Assembly (NCBI GenBank): GCA_963748805.1
Contig: CAVVLH010000006.1
Coordinates: 36,186-100,185, forward strand
Reading direction: 5' to 3'
DNA from: an uncultured Alphaproteobacteria bacterium
Lineage (GTDB): Bacteria; Pseudomonadota; Alphaproteobacteria; Rhizobiales; Xanthobacteraceae
Length of the DNA stretch: 64,000 nucleotides
Part shown: one piece after another, positions 9,179 to 16,334 of the stretch
Layout: each line of letters opens with the position of its first letter
How positions within the stretch are numbered: position 1 is the stretch's first letter
Position numbers and translations under genes: made by a program
The notes under the pieces: generated by a model
The model's input: only the letters and a program-made list of their open reading frames with translations
Database searches by the model: none
Told to the model about the DNA's origin: nothing

Positions 9179-9722
9179 ATGTCCTCCTGCAATTCTCGAA
9201 AAACGACCGTGTGTCTCGTTGATGGCGGCAATCGTCGACCACATGTCGAACGATCGGCGCACGATGAGAGCTTTGACTTCGGATCGATCAGCGTGTCCCG
9301 AAACAAAACCGCGGGACACATCGTAAGTCTCCCGCCACGTTCTGGTGGAAAACTCTTTACCGTCACGTTTAGCCTCGCGTGGCCGGCAGTCTAGAACGTA
9401 ACGGCGACCATTTGAATGAGGTTTTGGAACGCGAAGGCGTTACCGGCCTTCAAATCTTCATTAGCCGGGAGTTCAGTCACAGCAAGTCTGTGTTTCATCA
9501 GATAAAGACTGTCACAAGATGCTTTCGCCTCGCTGCCATCCTTGGAACGAGCTTGACGTCGCTCGAAGGTTTGGAAATCATGACGGGTGTTTGGAAATCC
9601 GTCAGTTTCATTGAAACGTCATTGGAAAGTTCAAGGAATATCACAACTCGGATTTTCGAACGGCGCAGAAAAATAAGCGCTCTCTAATTTGAACCCACGT
9701 ATTATTTTGCTTTCTTCGGTTA

Positions 9723-10286
9723 TTGACAGGTGCGCCGTTGAATAGTGGTGGTGCTTCTGACGGACAGGGCGCCGAGGGCGCCCGCAAGCAGGATGATACC
9801 GACAAGCCGCAATGGCGCCGGCTGGCGCCGCCCCTGATCGCGGCGGTGGTAGCGGGCGTTGCGATCGCTGCGGTACTCTCGCCGCAAAGATCGAACGGAG
9901 AAGGCGCGGAACTCGCCAGCGTCGCAGGCTCCCAGATCGAATCCGCCGCAACCACCATGGATCTGGTCGCCGCCTCAGACGCGGTAGAAGATGCCAAGCG
10001 CTGCCGCATACCGCTCGCCCAGATCACGCTGGCCGCAGCCTCCGGCTCAACCTCAACGATCCGCGTCCGTTCCGGAAGCTATGTGTCGCCGTCCTACGTC
10101 TTGACAGATCAACCGCAGCGCATCGCCATCCCCTTCCCGGCGGCCTATCCGAGCGGCCGCGGCGTCATTTCGGTCGAAGGCCAGGCGCAGAATCTCGCCG
10201 TTGCCCTCACTCCCACCTGGAAAGTAAACTCCCTGACCGGCACGGCAGTCATGAACGTGATCTGGACTCCGAAAACCGGCTGCTAA
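9723..10286 (+). CDS. Hypothetical single-pass membrane protein
   Basis: Hydrophobic LIAAVVAGVAIAAVL segment followed by a beta-rich domain; start uncertain (TTG at 9723 or 9738). Confidence 0.7.
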   Translation: MTGAPLNSGGASDGQGAEGARKQDDTDKPQWRRLAPPLIAAVVAGVAIAAVLSPQRSNGEGAELASVAGSQIESAATTMDLVAASDAVEDAKRCRIPLAQITLAAASGSTSTIRVRSGSYVSPSYVLTDQPQRIAIPFPAAYPSGRGVISVEGQAQNLAVALTPTWKVNSLTGTAVMNVIWTPKTGC

Positions 10287-10387
10287 AGCGCGATGAGATT
10301 TGGCTGAATCGTTATCGCGCTTTAGTTCTTTGATGAAGCATGATCTCTTCGGAAAACCGCTTCACACTTTTCCGGATCATGCTTTAG
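10283..10387. repeat. CIR/RIME-like twin-hairpin intergenic repeat, copy 1
   Basis: CTAAAGC...GCTTTAG ends, two internal hairpins, GAATC at 10306; near-identical inverted copy at 25343-25448. Confidence 0.85.
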
Positions 10388-10412
10388 TGGAGCGGATTTG
10401 ATGTTTGCTACC

Positions 10413-10574
10413 CTAGTGTCCCGATTCCGAAGTTCGTATTATTTTACGGAGCCGCGTTTCGAACTTCGAAATCGAAAGGACACTAGCAAACCTGTTGATC
10501 GAGTGTGGCTTTGGTTCAGAAGTCCGCATGACGAACTCGCGGCGATCATGATGCGGACTTCTGAACCGCCACAC
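10413..10574. repeat. CTAG-bounded twin-hairpin composite element (hairpins 10413-10486 and 10500-10574)
   Basis: ctagtgtccc-gattccgaagttcg...cgaacttcgaaatc-gaaa-ggacactag, a 13-bp core, then gtgtggc-ttt-ggttcagaagtccgcat...atgcggacttctgaacc-gccacac. Confidence 0.8.
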
Positions 10575-10606
10575 GACAATCGGACCACTCGTGAAGCGAG
10601 CGCGCA

Positions 10607-11743
10607 ATGAGCAAGTTCTTCGCCGACCGTCCCCTGCTTGGCTTTCTGATCGTGTCGGTTCTCGCTGCCCTGATCAGCGCCTGGGTATTGAACCCGCAAT
10701 CAAGCCCGATCGATTCCATCAAGGCGTTGATCAGCGGGCTGAACCTCGCCAGGTCCGTCGCGGGCGTGCTGATCCTGCTCGCGGGCGCGGGCATCACCTA
10801 CGTCGCCTGGCGCCTCGGTGGCGATCCGACCGCGATGGGTCTGGTGCCGGCCGGAGCAGGTTATACCGTCGGCCGCCGGCTGACCGTCACGATGCCGGAT
10901 TCAACGACCAAGGTCGTCGCCCGAACGGCAGACGATGCTCTCAACGATCTGGAGAACATGATTGGCCTTGCCCCCGTCAAGTCGGAGGTCAACAAGCTGC
11001 TTGCCAGTCTGGAGATCGAACGCAAGCGGCGCGAACAAGGCCTGCCGGTTGCGCCGACCAGCCGCCACATGGTGTTTACCGGGCCGCCCGGCGTCGGCAA
11101 AACCGTGGTCGCGCGCGCGCTGGGTGAAATCTACAGCTCGCTCGGCGTGCTGCGCAAAGGTCACCTGGTCGAGACCGATCGCGGCAAGGTGGTGGCCGGC
11201 TATATCGGCCAGACCGCGATCAAGATGCTCGAAGTCTGCAAGTCCGCCCATGACGGCATCCTGTTCATCGACGAAGCCTATGCGCTCGCCAGCGATCCGG
11301 GACTTGGTTCGGACTTCGGGCGCGAGGCGATCGACACGCTGCTGAAATATATGGAGGACAATCGCGACCGCATTATCGTGATCGCGGCCGGCTATCCCGA
11401 CGAAATGCGGAAGTTCATCGGCAGCAATCCGGGGCTTGCCAGCCGTTTCACCAAGACCATCAACTTTCCGTCTTACGATGCGTCGGAGCTCGCCGCGATC
11501 TTGCAGGTGATGGCCAAGCAGCAGGGATATTTACTGCCTGAGGGGTTTGAGCCGAAGTTCAAGAATTGGGTCGATGCCGAGCGCAACAGTTCGGACTGGG
11601 GCAACGCGCGCTCGATCCGGACCCTGCTCGAAAAGGCGCGCGAGGCTCACGCGGTCCGCAGCTATTCGGACCCCTCCGCCGACGTGTCGAAGCTCGAACT
11701 TGCCGACCTGGAAAGCGCCTATGGCGCGACGGGATATAAATAA
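10607..11743 (+). CDS. Membrane-anchored AAA+ ATPase, CbbX/CfxQ/SpoVK/EccA family
   Basis: Two N-terminal hydrophobic segments; MIGLAPVK, HMVFTGPPGVGKT (Walker A), ILFIDEAY (Walker B), NPGLASRF. Confidence 0.9.
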   Translation: MSKFFADRPLLGFLIVSVLAALISAWVLNPQSSPIDSIKALISGLNLARSVAGVLILLAGAGITYVAWRLGGDPTAMGLVPAGAGYTVGRRLTVTMPDSTTKVVARTADDALNDLENMIGLAPVKSEVNKLLASLEIERKRREQGLPVAPTSRHMVFTGPPGVGKTVVARALGEIYSSLGVLRKGHLVETDRGKVVAGYIGQTAIKMLEVCKSAHDGILFIDEAYALASDPGLGSDFGREAIDTLLKYMEDNRDRIIVIAAGYPDEMRKFIGSNPGLASRFTKTINFPSYDASELAAILQVMAKQQGYLLPEGFEPKFKNWVDAERNSSDWGNARSIRTLLEKAREAHAVRSYSDPSADVSKLELADLESAYGATGYK

Positions 11744-13386
11744 TGACCGGGCTTGCGTCGCGACTGGCAGCGCTGCATGGCGGTCTCTGGGCGATCGACC
11801 CCTGGTATCAGCGCAGCTGGTTTGTCGCACCGCCTGCCATCGCGCTGGTATTGGCCGGATGGATGATGGGCGACGCGCGGATGCCGGCAAACGCGCCTTG
11901 GGCGAAACCTGGAACCTCGGCGCCGAACGGTCCCGCCGCGCCGCCGGCAAACAACAAACCGCCATCACCGCAGGCGCAGACGTGCCGGAGCGACGACGTC
12001 GACAAGAATGTGGGCCTGGCTGCCTGCAACCAGGCGCTGGCGGAAACCGGTCTCGATACCAACACCCGTTCCGACCTTTTGACCCGCCGGGCCTTTCTGC
12101 GCAACCAGACGCCGGAGGCTCTCGCCGACCTCAATGAGGCGCTTCGGCTCAATCCGAACAATTACTGGTCGCTGGCACGGCGCGGCGCCCACTTTCTGGG
12201 CGAACGTGATTTCACCCGTGCCGCAGCCGATCTCAACAAGTCGATCAGCCTGAATCCCACGTACCAGTACGCGTTGCAGGTCCGCGGCGATATGTATTAC
12301 CAGCAGCAACAATACGACCTCGCCATCGCCGATCTCACAGAGGCGATCAAAATCGATAGCACGTTGACCCGGGCCTATTATCTGCGCGGCCTCGCCGAAT
12401 TCACCAAAGGCCTCTATGCCGCCGCGGCGCGCGACTTCGACGAATATCACAAGCTCAATCCATCGGATGTTGCCGGCCTGCGTTTCCGCGGCAATTCCTA
12501 CGCCTATGCCGGCCAGCGCGACCAGGCCATCGCGGATTTCAGCGAGGCGCTGCGGATCAACCCGCGCGACCAGTTCGCACTGGCGCTGCGCGCCCGCGCC
12601 TACTACTGGCAAAAGAAATTCGATCAGGCTTTCTCGGACGCCAACGAAGCCCTCGCCATCGACGCCTCGATGTCCATCGCCAGCGAAGTCAGAAGCTGGA
12701 TCAATTTTGATCGCGGCAGGTACGAAGCCGCGATCTCCGATCTGAACAACGCCATCAAGGCCGGTGCCAACCTTGACGAGTTGCAGACCCGCGGTCGCGC
12801 CTTGATGGCGACCGGGCAACTTGAGGCCAGCTATCGTGATTTCAAGCAGGCCGAGCAGATGGATACCAAGGCCGGCTACACGCAGTACCTGCTCGGACTG
12901 GTTTCGGAGCGCCGCGAAAATGCGCGGGTTCACCGCTGCATTGCCGGGGAAGGTGATGCGAACTGCTCGCGTATTCCCGATTATACCGAAACGATGGCGT
13001 ATTTCTCCAGAGGCATCGATCTTTCGCCGAACTTCGCACCTTGCTATTTTGACCGCTCGCGCATCTTGATGGCGCAGCGGCAGTTCGATCGCGCCAATGC
13101 CGATATCGAGACCGGCCTCAGGATCGATCCGAATAACTCCGAAGGCTATCTCGCGCGGGGAAACCTGTCGTTGACCCTGGAACGCTGGCGGGACGCGATC
13201 GATGACTACACGCGGTCCATCGGCATCAATTCAAAATCGGCCATGGCCTTCCTCAACCGCGGTCAGGCCTATCTGAAATTGAACGAACGCAACAATGCCA
13301 TCAGCGACTTGCGATCGTCCTATTCGCTCAATTCAAGCAACGACTATACGAGGAATCTTTTACGCTCGCTCGGTCAACGGGTCTGA
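11743..13386 (+). CDS. Membrane-anchored tetratricopeptide repeat protein
   Basis: N-terminal TM (IALVLAGWMM), Pro-rich linker, many TPR units (A..D...A..L.P....A...RG); TAATG overlap with the ATPase stop. Confidence 0.9.
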   Translation: MTGLASRLAALHGGLWAIDPWYQRSWFVAPPAIALVLAGWMMGDARMPANAPWAKPGTSAPNGPAAPPANNKPPSPQAQTCRSDDVDKNVGLAACNQALAETGLDTNTRSDLLTRRAFLRNQTPEALADLNEALRLNPNNYWSLARRGAHFLGERDFTRAAADLNKSISLNPTYQYALQVRGDMYYQQQQYDLAIADLTEAIKIDSTLTRAYYLRGLAEFTKGLYAAAARDFDEYHKLNPSDVAGLRFRGNSYAYAGQRDQAIADFSEALRINPRDQFALALRARAYYWQKKFDQAFSDANEALAIDASMSIASEVRSWINFDRGRYEAAISDLNNAIKAGANLDELQTRGRALMATGQLEASYRDFKQAEQMDTKAGYTQYLLGLVSERRENARVHRCIAGEGDANCSRIPDYTETMAYFSRGIDLSPNFAPCYFDRSRILMAQRQFDRANADIETGLRIDPNNSEGYLARGNLSLTLERWRDAIDDYTRSIGINSKSAMAFLNRGQAYLKLNERNNAISDLRSSYSLNSSNDYTRNLLRSLGQRV

Positions 13387-13478
13387 GCCGCAGCCTCGTT
13401 TCAATAGAGGTATTTCGATCCCGGGCTAGCTTGGGGTGTCCCGTCTTCGAGAGCCACGCCTTGGCCGAATTATTGCAT

Positions 13479-13614: not shown

Positions 13615-15018
13615 ATGCGCTTCTTGATCATTGCATTGTCGATTGCTGGTATGCTGGTAAGTGCGAGTGCCGCCAAGGCCGACCGGCGGGTCGCCTTCGT
13701 CGTCGGAAATGGCGCCTACAAGAACGTTGCGGCACTTCCGAATCCGCCGGTCGACGCCAAGGCGATGGCCTCCGTATTGCGAAATGCCGGTTTTGATGTC
13801 GTGGAAGGCATCAACCTCACCCGGGACAAGATGACCGAGCGGCTGCTTGAGTTCGGCAAGAAAACCCAGGGCGCGGATGTCGCGGTATTCTTTTACGCCG
13901 GACATGGCATCGCGGTGGACGGCACCAACTACCTGCTGCCGGTGGACGCCGACATCAAATCCGAAATGGACGTGAAGCTCGGCACCGCCATCAATGTCGA
14001 TCTCAGCATCGACCAGACCATGAGCGACGCCAAGGTCAAGCTGGTGTTCCTGGATGCCTGCCGCGACAATCCGTTCGCGGCGAAACTTCGCACGGAGCGA
14101 GCGACCCGGGGCCTCACCCTTCAATCCGGTTTGTCCGAGATGAAATCGGGCGAAGGCACACTGATCGCGTTTGCGACCGGCCCTGGACAGACTGCACTTG
14201 ACGGCCAGGAAGGCACCAACAGCCCCTTCACCCGGGCGCTGATCGCCAACATCACCCAACCCGGCGTCGAGATTCAGCAGGCGATGACCCAGGTCCGCGC
14301 CCAGGTCCGCGACGAAACCAACAAGGCCCAGCTGCCCTGGGGGAACACCAACCTGACCGGCGCCGTTTATCTCAATCCGGTTGCGGCGTCCGCCGGTGCA
14401 CCGGTAGCGGTTGCTTCGAACAGCCCAACGGCTACCGCGACCGGCACCAATTCCGACGTCGAATTGGAGTTCTGGCGCTCGATCAAGGACTCCAACAAAC
14501 CCGAAGAGCTCAACGCCTATCTGACCAACTATCCAAACGGGCAATTCAAGTCTCTGGCTCTGGCACGCATCGCCTCGCTCGAGAACGGTCCAAGCACCGC
14601 GACCCGCAACCTCAGCGTCGGTACCGATCCCGCCACCTTTACCGACGAAGCCAGCCAGCTCACCGAGGATCAGATCGGCCTCGACCGCAACCAGCGGCGC
14701 GACGTGCAGCGCCGTCTGAGCGGTCTTGGCTTCGACACCAAGGCCACGGGAAAGTTCGATGACTCCACCCGCGTCGTCATCAAACGCTGGCAGGCGGCTC
14801 GCGGCTATCCCAGCACCGGCTACCTCAACAAGCTCCAGCACAAGGCGTTGCTGACGGAAATCGTGGCGACGAACCAGACCAGTTCGAACGACGACTCCGA
14901 CGATCATCCGCGCCGTCATTCCGGCGGTGGCGGCCGCCGCGGTGGTGGCGGAGGCGGCGGACTTGCCGGACCGGGACAATTCATCGGCGGCTTCGCCCGC
15001 GGATTGTTCGGCCGATAA
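13615..15018 (+). CDS. Secreted caspase-like peptidase (C14) with C-terminal peptidoglycan-binding-like domain
   Basis: Signal peptide; RRVAFVVGNGAY, FFYAGHG (His), FLDACRDNP (Cys); RRDVQRRLSGLGFD...GKFD..TR..IKRWQ PG-binding-like segment; Gly-rich tail. Confidence 0.9.
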   Translation: MRFLIIALSIAGMLVSASAAKADRRVAFVVGNGAYKNVAALPNPPVDAKAMASVLRNAGFDVVEGINLTRDKMTERLLEFGKKTQGADVAVFFYAGHGIAVDGTNYLLPVDADIKSEMDVKLGTAINVDLSIDQTMSDAKVKLVFLDACRDNPFAAKLRTERATRGLTLQSGLSEMKSGEGTLIAFATGPGQTALDGQEGTNSPFTRALIANITQPGVEIQQAMTQVRAQVRDETNKAQLPWGNTNLTGAVYLNPVAASAGAPVAVASNSPTATATGTNSDVELEFWRSIKDSNKPEELNAYLTNYPNGQFKSLALARIASLENGPSTATRNLSVGTDPATFTDEASQLTEDQIGLDRNQRRDVQRRLSGLGFDTKATGKFDDSTRVVIKRWQAARGYPSTGYLNKLQHKALLTEIVATNQTSSNDDSDDHPRRHSGGGGRRGGGGGGGLAGPGQFIGGFARGLFGR

Positions 15019-15197
15019 TCCGAACTCGTCGCGGCAGCGCCGGCCGAACCCGGAGCCGCCGCAACTACCCGAAAAGCCCCTCGGTCTTCATTGCCGATCA
15101 AGTATCCCAAAACCGCATCGCTCTGACGATCGAGTCCCGTTCTGATGAACCACCCCTATTGGCAGCCAAATATATACAACCCGCGAGGAAAATTTCG

Positions 15198-15830
15198 ATG
15201 ATCCGATCTTTTAGGACCCAGGCGATTGTTGCCATCGGGGCCCTGCTGACGATGTCTGTCGGACAAGCGTTTGCCGGTGATGACGTCACCGCCGACACGA
15301 TCGTACGAGCGCTTCAGCCCAAGCCGCTGACGAGAAGTCTTTCCATGACGCCGACACGGGACCCGGCCGCCAATGCGGCAGACGGGCGCGTCATCGACAG
15401 CCTTCGCAACAGGAAAACGCGTTCACTTTCGTCAAGCGAGCGCGAAGAGATCGCGACCGTCGCAGCGGACAAGCCGAACATCGATCTCGAAATCACCTTC
15501 GATTACAATTCTGCGGATATCAGCGGAACGTCGCTGCCCAGCGTCCAGGCACTCGGCAAAGCCCTTACAGATCCGCATCTCAAGGGTTCGACCTTCATGG
15601 TCGCCGGCCACACCGATGCAGCAGGTGGGGAAGCCTACAATCAGGAACTTTCCGAACGTCGGGCCGACACCATCAAACGCTATCTCGTCGATAACTTCGG
15701 TATTGCAGGCAACGACCTGATCACCGTTGGCTATGGCAAGGACAAGCTCAAGAATCCGAATGCGCCGATGGATCCGGCCAACCGTCGGGTGCAGGTCGTC
15801 AACCTGGCAAATAAGACCGCGTCCAAGTGA
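15198..15830 (+). CDS. OmpA family peptidoglycan-associated protein
   Basis: Signal peptide; ITFDYNSA, VAGHTDAAG..YNQELSERRA, GYG, NRRVQV motifs. Confidence 0.92.
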   Translation: MIRSFRTQAIVAIGALLTMSVGQAFAGDDVTADTIVRALQPKPLTRSLSMTPTRDPAANAADGRVIDSLRNRKTRSLSSSEREEIATVAADKPNIDLEITFDYNSADISGTSLPSVQALGKALTDPHLKGSTFMVAGHTDAAGGEAYNQELSERRADTIKRYLVDNFGIAGNDLITVGYGKDKLKNPNAPMDPANRRVQVVNLANKTASK

Positions 15831-15965: not shown

Positions 15966-16334
15966 ATGCGCAAACCTCTTCTCGCGATCGCCGTTCTCAT
16001 GATTTCCACCATCGCCGCCGGTGCCGATCCCACCCTTCGCGTCGCGGAGAACGATCAGCCTTCAGTGCCGCCGGTTGTCATCACGACCGAGCCGAGTGAA
16101 CCGGCAAAGCCCATCGAGGCGAAGACCCCCGAACCGACCAAGGCGGTTGAATCGACAAAGGCCGCCGCCGAACCAGCCAAGGTTGTTGCAGAGCCAGCAA
16201 AGACGGCAGAGCCAACACCGGCTGCGGAAGCAAAACCGGCTCAACCTCAGAAGACGAAGTCGCGTGTGGCGCGCCAAGAAAGCGCCGAACAGAAGGCTCG
16301 CCGGATCGCTGCGAAATACGGCGTCTATTGGTGA
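15966..16334 (+). CDS. Secreted Pro/Ala/Glu/Lys-rich hypothetical protein
   Basis: GGAG RBS, signal peptide, EP(A/T)K repeats, C-terminal ARRIAAKYGVYW. Confidence 0.8.
   Translation: MRKPLLAIAVLMISTIAAGADPTLRVAENDQPSVPPVVITTEPSEPAKPIEAKTPEPTKAVESTKAAAEPAKVVAEPAKTAEPTPAAEAKPAQPQKTKSRVARQESAEQKARRIAAKYGVYW

Follow-up and report, generated by a model that had tools for sequence, protein, structure and literature searches.

A putative membrane-tethered AAA+ remodeller of the SpoVK/CbbX/EccA type, encoded with two single-span membrane partners in an alphaproteobacterial three-gene cassette

We analyzed a 64,000-nucleotide stretch of DNA (here called the window) from an uncultured alphaproteobacterium of the Xanthobacteraceae, a soil bacterium of the Bradyrhizobium type (assembly GCA_963748805.1, contig CAVVLH010000006.1, positions 36,186 to 100,185 of the forward strand), in which three adjacent genes form a conserved cassette. 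They encode an AAA+ ATPase of the SpoVK/CbbX/EccA type and two proteins with a single transmembrane (TM) helix. One of the two is a 187-residue protein, termed up187, and the other joins a conserved N-terminal module (N-mod) to a long array of tetratricopeptide repeats (TPR). We consider it about an even chance that the genes at 9723-13386 together specify one dedicated inner-membrane AAA+ remodeller or extractase that acts on single-TM partners. The genes are arranged as follows.

9723..10286, plus strand: gene 1 (up187), single-TM membrane protein of 187 amino acids
10607..11743, plus strand: gene 2, AAA+ ATPase of the SpoVK/CbbX/EccA type, 378 amino acids
11743..13386, plus strand: gene 3, N-mod/TPR protein of 547 amino acids with one TM helix and a long TPR array

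An earlier reading of the same DNA (the original prediction) had claimed an ATPase reading frame and a TPR reading frame joined by a TAATG overlap, and both frames are found at exactly the positions that it gave. The stop codon of gene 2 (TAA, 11741-11743) shares its last A with the start codon of gene 3 (ATG, 11743-11745), and this 1-base overlap is seen in the junction sequence TATAAATAATGACC, also given as TAAATAATGACC. To place the genes among their relatives, we scanned one genome per species, which yielded 79 related loci. Bradyrhizobium and other Xanthobacteraceae account for most of these, and a few belong to Methylocystaceae, Methylocapsa, Rhodomicrobium, and Acetobacteraceae. These loci thus span Hyphomicrobiales and Acetobacteraceae, and they present several gene orders with overlapping or near-abutting reading frames. 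An N-mod partner, sharing the first ~56 residues of gene 3, accompanies the ATPase in every one of the 79 loci except three, which are short or lie at a contig edge. Co-conservation of the ATPase and TPR genes, on which the original prediction had staked itself beforehand, is therefore borne out. The usual position of the N-mod gene is just downstream of the AAA gene; in some loci it is duplicated in tandem, and in others it is divergently transcribed. The two genes do not stand alone: ~76 of the 79 loci have an up187 homologue immediately 5' of the AAA gene, which makes up187 as tightly linked as the TPR gene and makes the unit one of three genes. No gene beyond these three families recurs in more than ~20 of the 79 loci. 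The genome to which the window belongs (5.76-Mb assembly, 90.6% complete) holds exactly one copy of each family.

The domain content of gene 2 agrees with its proposed placement in the SpoVK/CbbX/EccA clade. It matches the Pfam families AAA (2.8e-17) and AAA_lid_6. Its best NCBIfam scores are to SpoVK (254 bits), EccA (240), and CbbX (227), all below the cut-offs of these models (423-467), and its best matches in the Protein Data Bank (PDB) are CbbX (3ZUH/3SYL, 9e-55) and EccA1 (9LUR, 1e-47). The following elements are recognizable in the protein, with hydropathy given as the Kyte-Doolittle 19-residue mean and SRH denoting the second region of homology.

10634-10690, plus strand: predicted helix TM1, residues 10-28, hydropathy 2.62
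between TM1 and TM2, plus strand: predicted periplasmic loop of ~20 residues with a conserved LNPxSGP motif
10754-10810, plus strand: predicted helix TM2, residues 50-68, hydropathy 1.86
11081-11104, plus strand: Walker A motif GPPGVGKT, residues 159-166
11195-11215, plus strand: pore-loop AGYIGQT, residues 197-203
11261-11278, plus strand: Walker B motif LFIDEA, residues 219-224
residues 261-263, plus strand: sensor-1 AGY
11426-11449, plus strand: SRH NPGLASRF, residues 274-281
residues 333-335, plus strand: sensor-2 NAR

In 74 of 76 homologues both TM segments have a Kyte-Doolittle value of 1.6 or more, and a basic residue follows TM2 in the ATPase homologues. The ATPase is very probably tethered in the inner membrane by this conserved N-terminal hairpin, and its N and C termini would both be cytoplasmic because the AAA domain needs ATP. 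The two N-terminal membrane helices and the intact Walker A and B motifs, GPPGVGKT and LFIDEA, that had been read from the sequence are thus confirmed. Across the ATPase family, conservation extends to Walker A, Walker B, sensor-1, sensor-2, and one arginine of the SRH, and an aromatic residue of the pore loop is retained in 137 of 142 AAA modules.

Aligned with CbbX, the ATPase is seen to have two of the three signature features that define the SpoVK-EccA-like clade (PMC11513918). In sensor-1, AAGY at residues 260-263 aligns with LAGY of CbbX, and in sensor-2, which holds the second arginine finger, GNARSIR at residues 332-338 aligns with ANARSIR. In the SRH, Asn-274 is present, but the N+4 position is Ala-278 (NPGLASRF, compared with NPGFRSRI in CbbX and NEGLRSRF in EccA1). 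The N+6 arginine (Arg-280) is invariant, whereas the N+4 arginine is missing from every module, the consensus being NPGL[A/S/E/Q/G]SRF. Elsewhere in the same genome, at ~246808-249528 of contig C46, lies a soluble CbbX-like gene whose product is 40% identical to the window ATPase; it is found just downstream of a Rubisco large-subunit-like reading frame, in what appears to be a conventional cbbL-(S)-cbbX set. Because this separate cbbX stands beside the Rubisco large-subunit gene, the role of Rubisco activase does not fall to the window ATPase.

Gene 3 is composed of an N-terminal membrane module and a long repeat domain, which divide as follows.

11743..11910, plus strand: N-mod, residues 1-56, with a predicted cytoplasmic helix (2-18), the TM helix, and the motif WAKP (53-56)
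11815-11871, plus strand: predicted TM helix, residues ~25-43, Kyte-Doolittle 1.46
11911..13386, plus strand: rest of gene 3, with a Pro-rich linker to residue 75, Cys-81 and Cys-95, and the TPR solenoid (76-542)

The AlphaFold2 model of the protein, with a mean predicted local distance difference test (pLDDT) score of 92, contains two helices (residues 2-18 and 20-43), then a linker that is disordered (44-75), and from 76 to 542 an unbroken TPR solenoid; the TPR matches are strong (Pfam TPR_1, 1e-45). Across 73 family members, Tyr-22, Trp-26, and Pro-30 of the N-mod are invariant, and His-12, Trp-16, Asp-19, Trp-53, Lys-55, and Pro-56 are nearly so (65-72 of 73). The repeats that follow are TPR in 43 of the 73 and Sel1 in 35, and an occasional member carries a C-terminal PG_binding_1 domain or a DUF4189 domain. 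On the alignments, what is conserved in the partner is a new module at the N terminus and not the TPR array. The original view of a TPR scaffold as the partner of the ATPase is therefore retained in part: a co-conserved, translationally coupled, TM-anchored repeat protein is indeed there, but its constant element is the N-mod of ~56 residues, after which TPR may be swapped for Sel1.

Several features bear on the topology of this protein. Lys and Arg residues average 3.0 in the N-terminal tail of N-mod proteins, compared with 1.3 over the 15 residues that follow the TM helix. The tail never contains cysteine, whereas the part beyond the membrane mostly has even numbers of cysteines; Cys-81 and Cys-95 are both present in 41 of the 73 members and otherwise both absent. 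The Lys+Arg bias, the cysteine pattern, and the peptidoglycan-binding fusions indicate that the repeat array is likely periplasmic and that the conserved 23-residue N-mod helix is likely cytoplasmic, in keeping with the predicted single-TM protein whose long TPR array is probably periplasmic. We also considered, and for the genome of the window rejected, a role of the N-mod as a tag that would target many clients in general, since this genome holds only one copy.

The product of gene 1 has a predicted TM helix at about residues 34-52 (9822-9878, Kyte-Doolittle 2.43). Before it lies a variable, low-complexity N-terminal tail, predicted to be disordered and cytoplasmic, and after it, at residues 61-187, come two helices and a β-sandwich predicted to be periplasmic (AlphaFold2, pLDDT >90). 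A pair of cysteines, Cys-94 and the C-terminal Cys-187, is invariant in the family alignment; this invariance argues for the periplasmic topology, and the β-sandwich is likely a periplasmic, disulfide-bearing domain. We found no Pfam, NCBIfam, or PADLOC family for up187, and no Foldseek match of its periplasmic domain against the PDB below an E value of 0.01. The only matches, weak ones to β-sandwiches of the lipid-binding type (MmpS5, PLAT, and NPC2) at E values of at least 0.014, did not identify the fold. Among 1.84 billion proteins, only 281 cluster representatives belong to this tiny family.

The number of AAA modules per operon varies among the relatives. Some encode a single AAA module behind the TM hairpin, like the window protein, and others two fused modules (~680 amino acids) or three (973 amino acids, locus L015). 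In a further group, one anchored module is followed by a separate soluble protein of two modules (~600 amino acids) or of five (1432-1434 amino acids). The five-module form occurs in at least four genomes (L068:4997-9295 and L073:7126-11424, and genomes G401 and G283), and there is one locus each with 1+3 and 1+4 modules. The count thus ranges from one to six modules per operon, and a maximum of six fits a hexameric ring, so that a ring may hold anywhere from six TM hairpins to one. This variation in the number of hairpins per ring argues for the hairpin as a tether or a partner-docking element and against a channel. We examined a stricter rule, that the modules per operon divide or sum to six, and did not adopt it: 1, 2, 3, 1+2, and 1+5 fit, whereas the single 1+3 and 1+4 loci do not, although these may be assembly artefacts.

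Eleven loci (L028:5992-8706, L034, L037, L038, L040, L041, L043, L044, L046, L048, and L056) encode proteins of ~900 amino acids in which the TM hairpin and two AAA modules are followed by a Trypsin_2 domain. The catalytic triad of this domain is intact in the motifs for His (TNQHV), Asp (RDIALVKV), and Ser (GNSGGP), and the protease is expected to be cytoplasmic because no TM segment precedes it. These fusions point to an unfoldase-type activity of the ATPase. A survey covering the SpoVK-EccA-like clade reported no association with peptidases (PMC11513918), and the Trypsin_2 fusions, as read from their domain matches, are an exception to that report.

To define the limits of the cassette, we compared the locus with its closest relatives (87-93% AAA identity) by blastn. 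Nucleotide homology is confined to 9510-10290 and 10588-13390, and the flanks are unrelated; toward loci L001, L002, and L004, homology begins at 9509-9510. Because homology is limited in this way, the cassette appears to be a discrete, mobile unit. By this comparison it is self-contained, 3.9 kb in length, and sits at differing genomic places. Two further features belong to this map.

9510..9722, plus strand: conserved upstream leader, its left end being the limit of blastn homology with the closest relatives
10290..10590, no strand assigned: insertion between genes 1 and 2 resembling miniature inverted-repeat transposable elements (MITE) or repetitive extragenic palindromic (REP) sequences, made of two dispersed hairpin-forming repeats and outside the system

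The leader contains a promoter-like site at 9553-9581, a pattern match only, from a consensus scan; the promoter and terminator scan of the locus was uninformative. Genes 1 and 2 are separated by ~0-20 bp in relatives, and the closest relatives are without the ~300-bp insertion. Of its two parts, element A (10290-10387, ~98 bp) occurs at least 12 times in the genome of the window and element B (10413-10574, ~162 bp) at least 28 times. The copies are 81-96% identical, and the insertion has a fold z-score of −6.7.

The cassette is accessory and patchy: within the window's genus, 38 of 301 species carry it (23 of 216 high-quality genomes), and an even sample of 201 genomes from the whole family has it in only 3-4. 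Its cultured carriers include B. ganzhouense JCM19881 and Bradyrhizobium sp. STM 3562. The flanks in the close relative L002 are ordinary metabolic genes, not defence or mobile genes; five of the reading frames chosen in the L002 and L030 flanks had no Pfam match and were probably out of frame. Three contigs that carry the cassette are labelled Acidobacteriaceae, Frankia sp. RB7, and Rudaea (L039, L043, and L050). They look like mis-binned or contaminant DNA of the Bradyrhizobium type; two of them are short, and the identity of all three to the window protein, 57-95%, agrees with that of the Bradyrhizobium loci.

Adjacent to the cassette on its downstream side, a gene at 13615-15018 encodes a secreted caspase-like protein (Peptidase_C14, 8.7e-40), which has a signal peptide and a PG_binding_1 domain and ends in a Gly/Arg-rich tail. 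Next comes an OmpA-family peptidoglycan-anchoring protein with a signal peptide (15159-15830). We considered the caspase and OmpA genes as parts of the cassette and rejected both, since they occur in 0 of the 79 loci and homology ends at 13390. A third neighbour (15966-16334), an exported 122-residue protein rich in Ala, Pro, and Lys that belongs to no known family, is likewise unlinked to the cassette.

Gene linkage, domain content, the conservation of catalytic and pore motifs, and the likely topology are supported by these data; the formation of a complex, the tail that is engaged, and the physiological output are what we infer from them. We propose that the cytoplasmic ATPase ring, held at the membrane by its hairpins, would dock onto the TM helices of its two partners, each of which would expose a short N terminus to the cytoplasm and its bulk to the periplasm. 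The pore-loop tyrosine would then grip and pull the cytoplasmic N-terminal tail of a partner, the candidates being the conserved 23-residue N-mod helix and the disordered tail of up187. Such pulling would remodel, reposition, or extract the partner and in this way control the binding or the amount of the periplasmic scaffold. In the protease-fused relatives, the pulled substrate would be fed into degradation, as in FtsH or Lon. It counts in favor of this proposal that the characterized members of the clade are narrow-substrate remodellers (PMC11513918). Four observations weigh on the other side. The hydrophobicity of the gene 3 TM helix is modest, and the family-wide replacement of the N+4 arginine in the SRH may have altered the kinetics of the ATPase. 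Most versions of the system, that of the window included, have no protease, and degradation therefore cannot be its general output. Finally, the 300-bp repeat insertion between genes 1 and 2 may disturb their co-expression.

Other explanations have to be set against a dedicated extractase. The ATPase could be a chaperone whose periplasmic partners only place it at envelope sites, for example on peptidoglycan, and whose client is an unlinked cytoplasmic or membrane enzyme, as MurG is for SpoVK and Rubisco for CbbX. Characterized members of the clade do serve a single enzyme to which they are dedicated (PMC11513918), PG_binding_1 occurs in some N-mod proteins, and the 1+5 operons, with one TM hairpin for six AAA modules, would suit a tether. 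We nevertheless regard this arrangement as unlikely: no client gene is co-conserved among the 79 loci, where the recurrence of other neighbours stays below the bound given above, and the invariant residues of the cytoplasmic N-mod helix point to a specific contact and not to mere anchoring. Less probable again is a module for envelope surveillance or conflict, in which a fast-changing TPR or Sel1 array would sense a foreign or damaged envelope component and switch on the ATPase, or the ATPase-protease, as an effector. Its appeal lies in the patchy distribution, the unrelated genomic contexts even among close relatives, and a repeat domain that diverges faster than the ATPase (81% compared with 93% identity) and is exchanged between TPR and Sel1. 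The occasional tandem duplication of N-mod genes, the protease fusions in some relatives, and a weak TPR-S match fit it as well. However, the similarity found by PADLOC is to a generic AAA domain only (IetA, 35 bits), no toxin or nuclease effector is present, most versions are without an effector domain, and the genes in the flanks examined are ordinary metabolic ones, not genes of defence or mobility.

A bolder version of the pulling mechanism would resemble endoplasmic reticulum-associated degradation (ERAD), or would transmit ATP-driven force across the inner membrane. Here the periplasmic Sel1 or TPR receptor, held by its one TM helix, would capture clients of the periplasm or the membrane. 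The tethered AAA+ ring in the cytoplasm would draw these clients, or the receptor, out of the inner membrane or through it, and the protease-fused forms would go on to degrade what had been pulled. We hold this to be improbable; if true, it would be the first ATP-powered route leading back from the periplasm into the cytoplasm. Scarcely credible is the notion that the genes are chance neighbours or that their N-terminal helices lie outside the membrane. The hydropathy of the N-mod TM helix, which is modest, is the only point that could be raised for it, whereas the genes are co-conserved in almost every locus and translationally coupled, and both the hydrophobic segments and the motifs that flank them are conserved.

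Full-text literature searches returned no described equivalent of the three-gene cassette, in agreement with the original proposal of an undescribed envelope system. Should the ATPase work on a periplasmic scaffold through the scaffold's cytoplasmic tail, as the extractase proposal holds, this would be a new way of coupling cytoplasmic ATP to the Gram-negative periplasm. The range of one to six modules per operon would in addition offer a natural series on how many anchors and how many active modules an AAA+ ring needs.

Among the characterized members of the clade, SpoVK gives the top NCBIfam score, and it acts at the membrane surface on an envelope-synthesis enzyme (PMC11513918). It is, however, soluble, has a small β/α N-domain, and is specific to sporulating Bacillota, and the 254 bits of the window ATPase fall short of the 422.95 required by TIGR02881. 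CbbX is the best structural match (9e-55 over residues 107-360) and shares the AAA module, the pore-loop tyrosine, the GY of sensor-1, and the sensor-2 arginine. In contrast to the window protein, CbbX is soluble, lacks a TM hairpin, and acts on Rubisco, and the window protein for its part lacks the N+4 arginine of the SRH. The score against TIGR02880 is 226.6 bits, compared with a cut-off of 459.25, and the window contains no Rubisco genes.

EccA1 belongs to the same AAA clade (1e-47) and is likewise associated with TPR repeats, and the original prediction had likened the system to a split, membrane-bound EccA. This likeness does not hold. The TPR domain of EccA is cytoplasmic and present in cis, whereas here the N terminus of the ATPase is a TM hairpin and the repeats, exchangeable for Sel1, are on a separate, probably periplasmic protein. 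The match to TIGR03922 (239.6 bits, compared with a cut-off of 466.65) covers only the C-terminal AAA part (profile positions 270-527), and no type VII secretion system genes lie nearby. Anti-phage systems such as IetAS are no closer: in PADLOC, the 35-bit IetA match covers the AAA core only and genes 1 and 3 have no match. We therefore did not assign the cassette to a defence system, there being no PADLOC support and the L002 flanks being ordinary metabolic genes.

The proposed mode of action has parallels outside this group. FtsH extracts membrane proteins via their cytoplasmic tails. It has an N-terminal two-TM anchor followed by a cytoplasmic AAA ring, like the window ATPase, and carries its own protease, like the trypsin-fused relatives. 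FtsH represents the sister clade of the SpoVK-EccA group and usually lacks the sensor-2 arginine that the window ATPase has (PMC11513918). The window ATPase also differs in its periplasmic loop of ~20 residues, where FtsH has a folded domain, and in the fused protease of its relatives, which is a serine protease of the chymotrypsin fold. It has no Pfam Peptidase_M41 match and scores 22-25 bits against the FtsH models of NCBIfam, whose cut-offs are 600-1008. The eukaryotic extractases and translocases Msp1/ATAD1 and Bcs1 combine an N-terminal membrane anchor with a cytosolic AAA ring acting on membrane proteins. They offer a functional analogy, although they belong to another AAA clade, have a single TM helix, and come without dedicated operon partners.

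ERAD presents a conceptual parallel only. In the Hrd3/SEL1L-Cdc48 system, a one-TM Sel1 receptor on the non-cytosolic side is combined with a cytosolic AAA+ puller and a protease. There is no Hrd1-like channel or ubiquitin system here, and the 1+5 operons would give ~4 TM helices per ring. The SpoVK/CbbX/EccA clade has so far been known only from soluble chaperones with one substrate each, and the family described here would represent a membrane-tethered branch of it, a putative AAA+ machine that has two new families of partners and, in some of its members, a serine protease fused to the ATPase.

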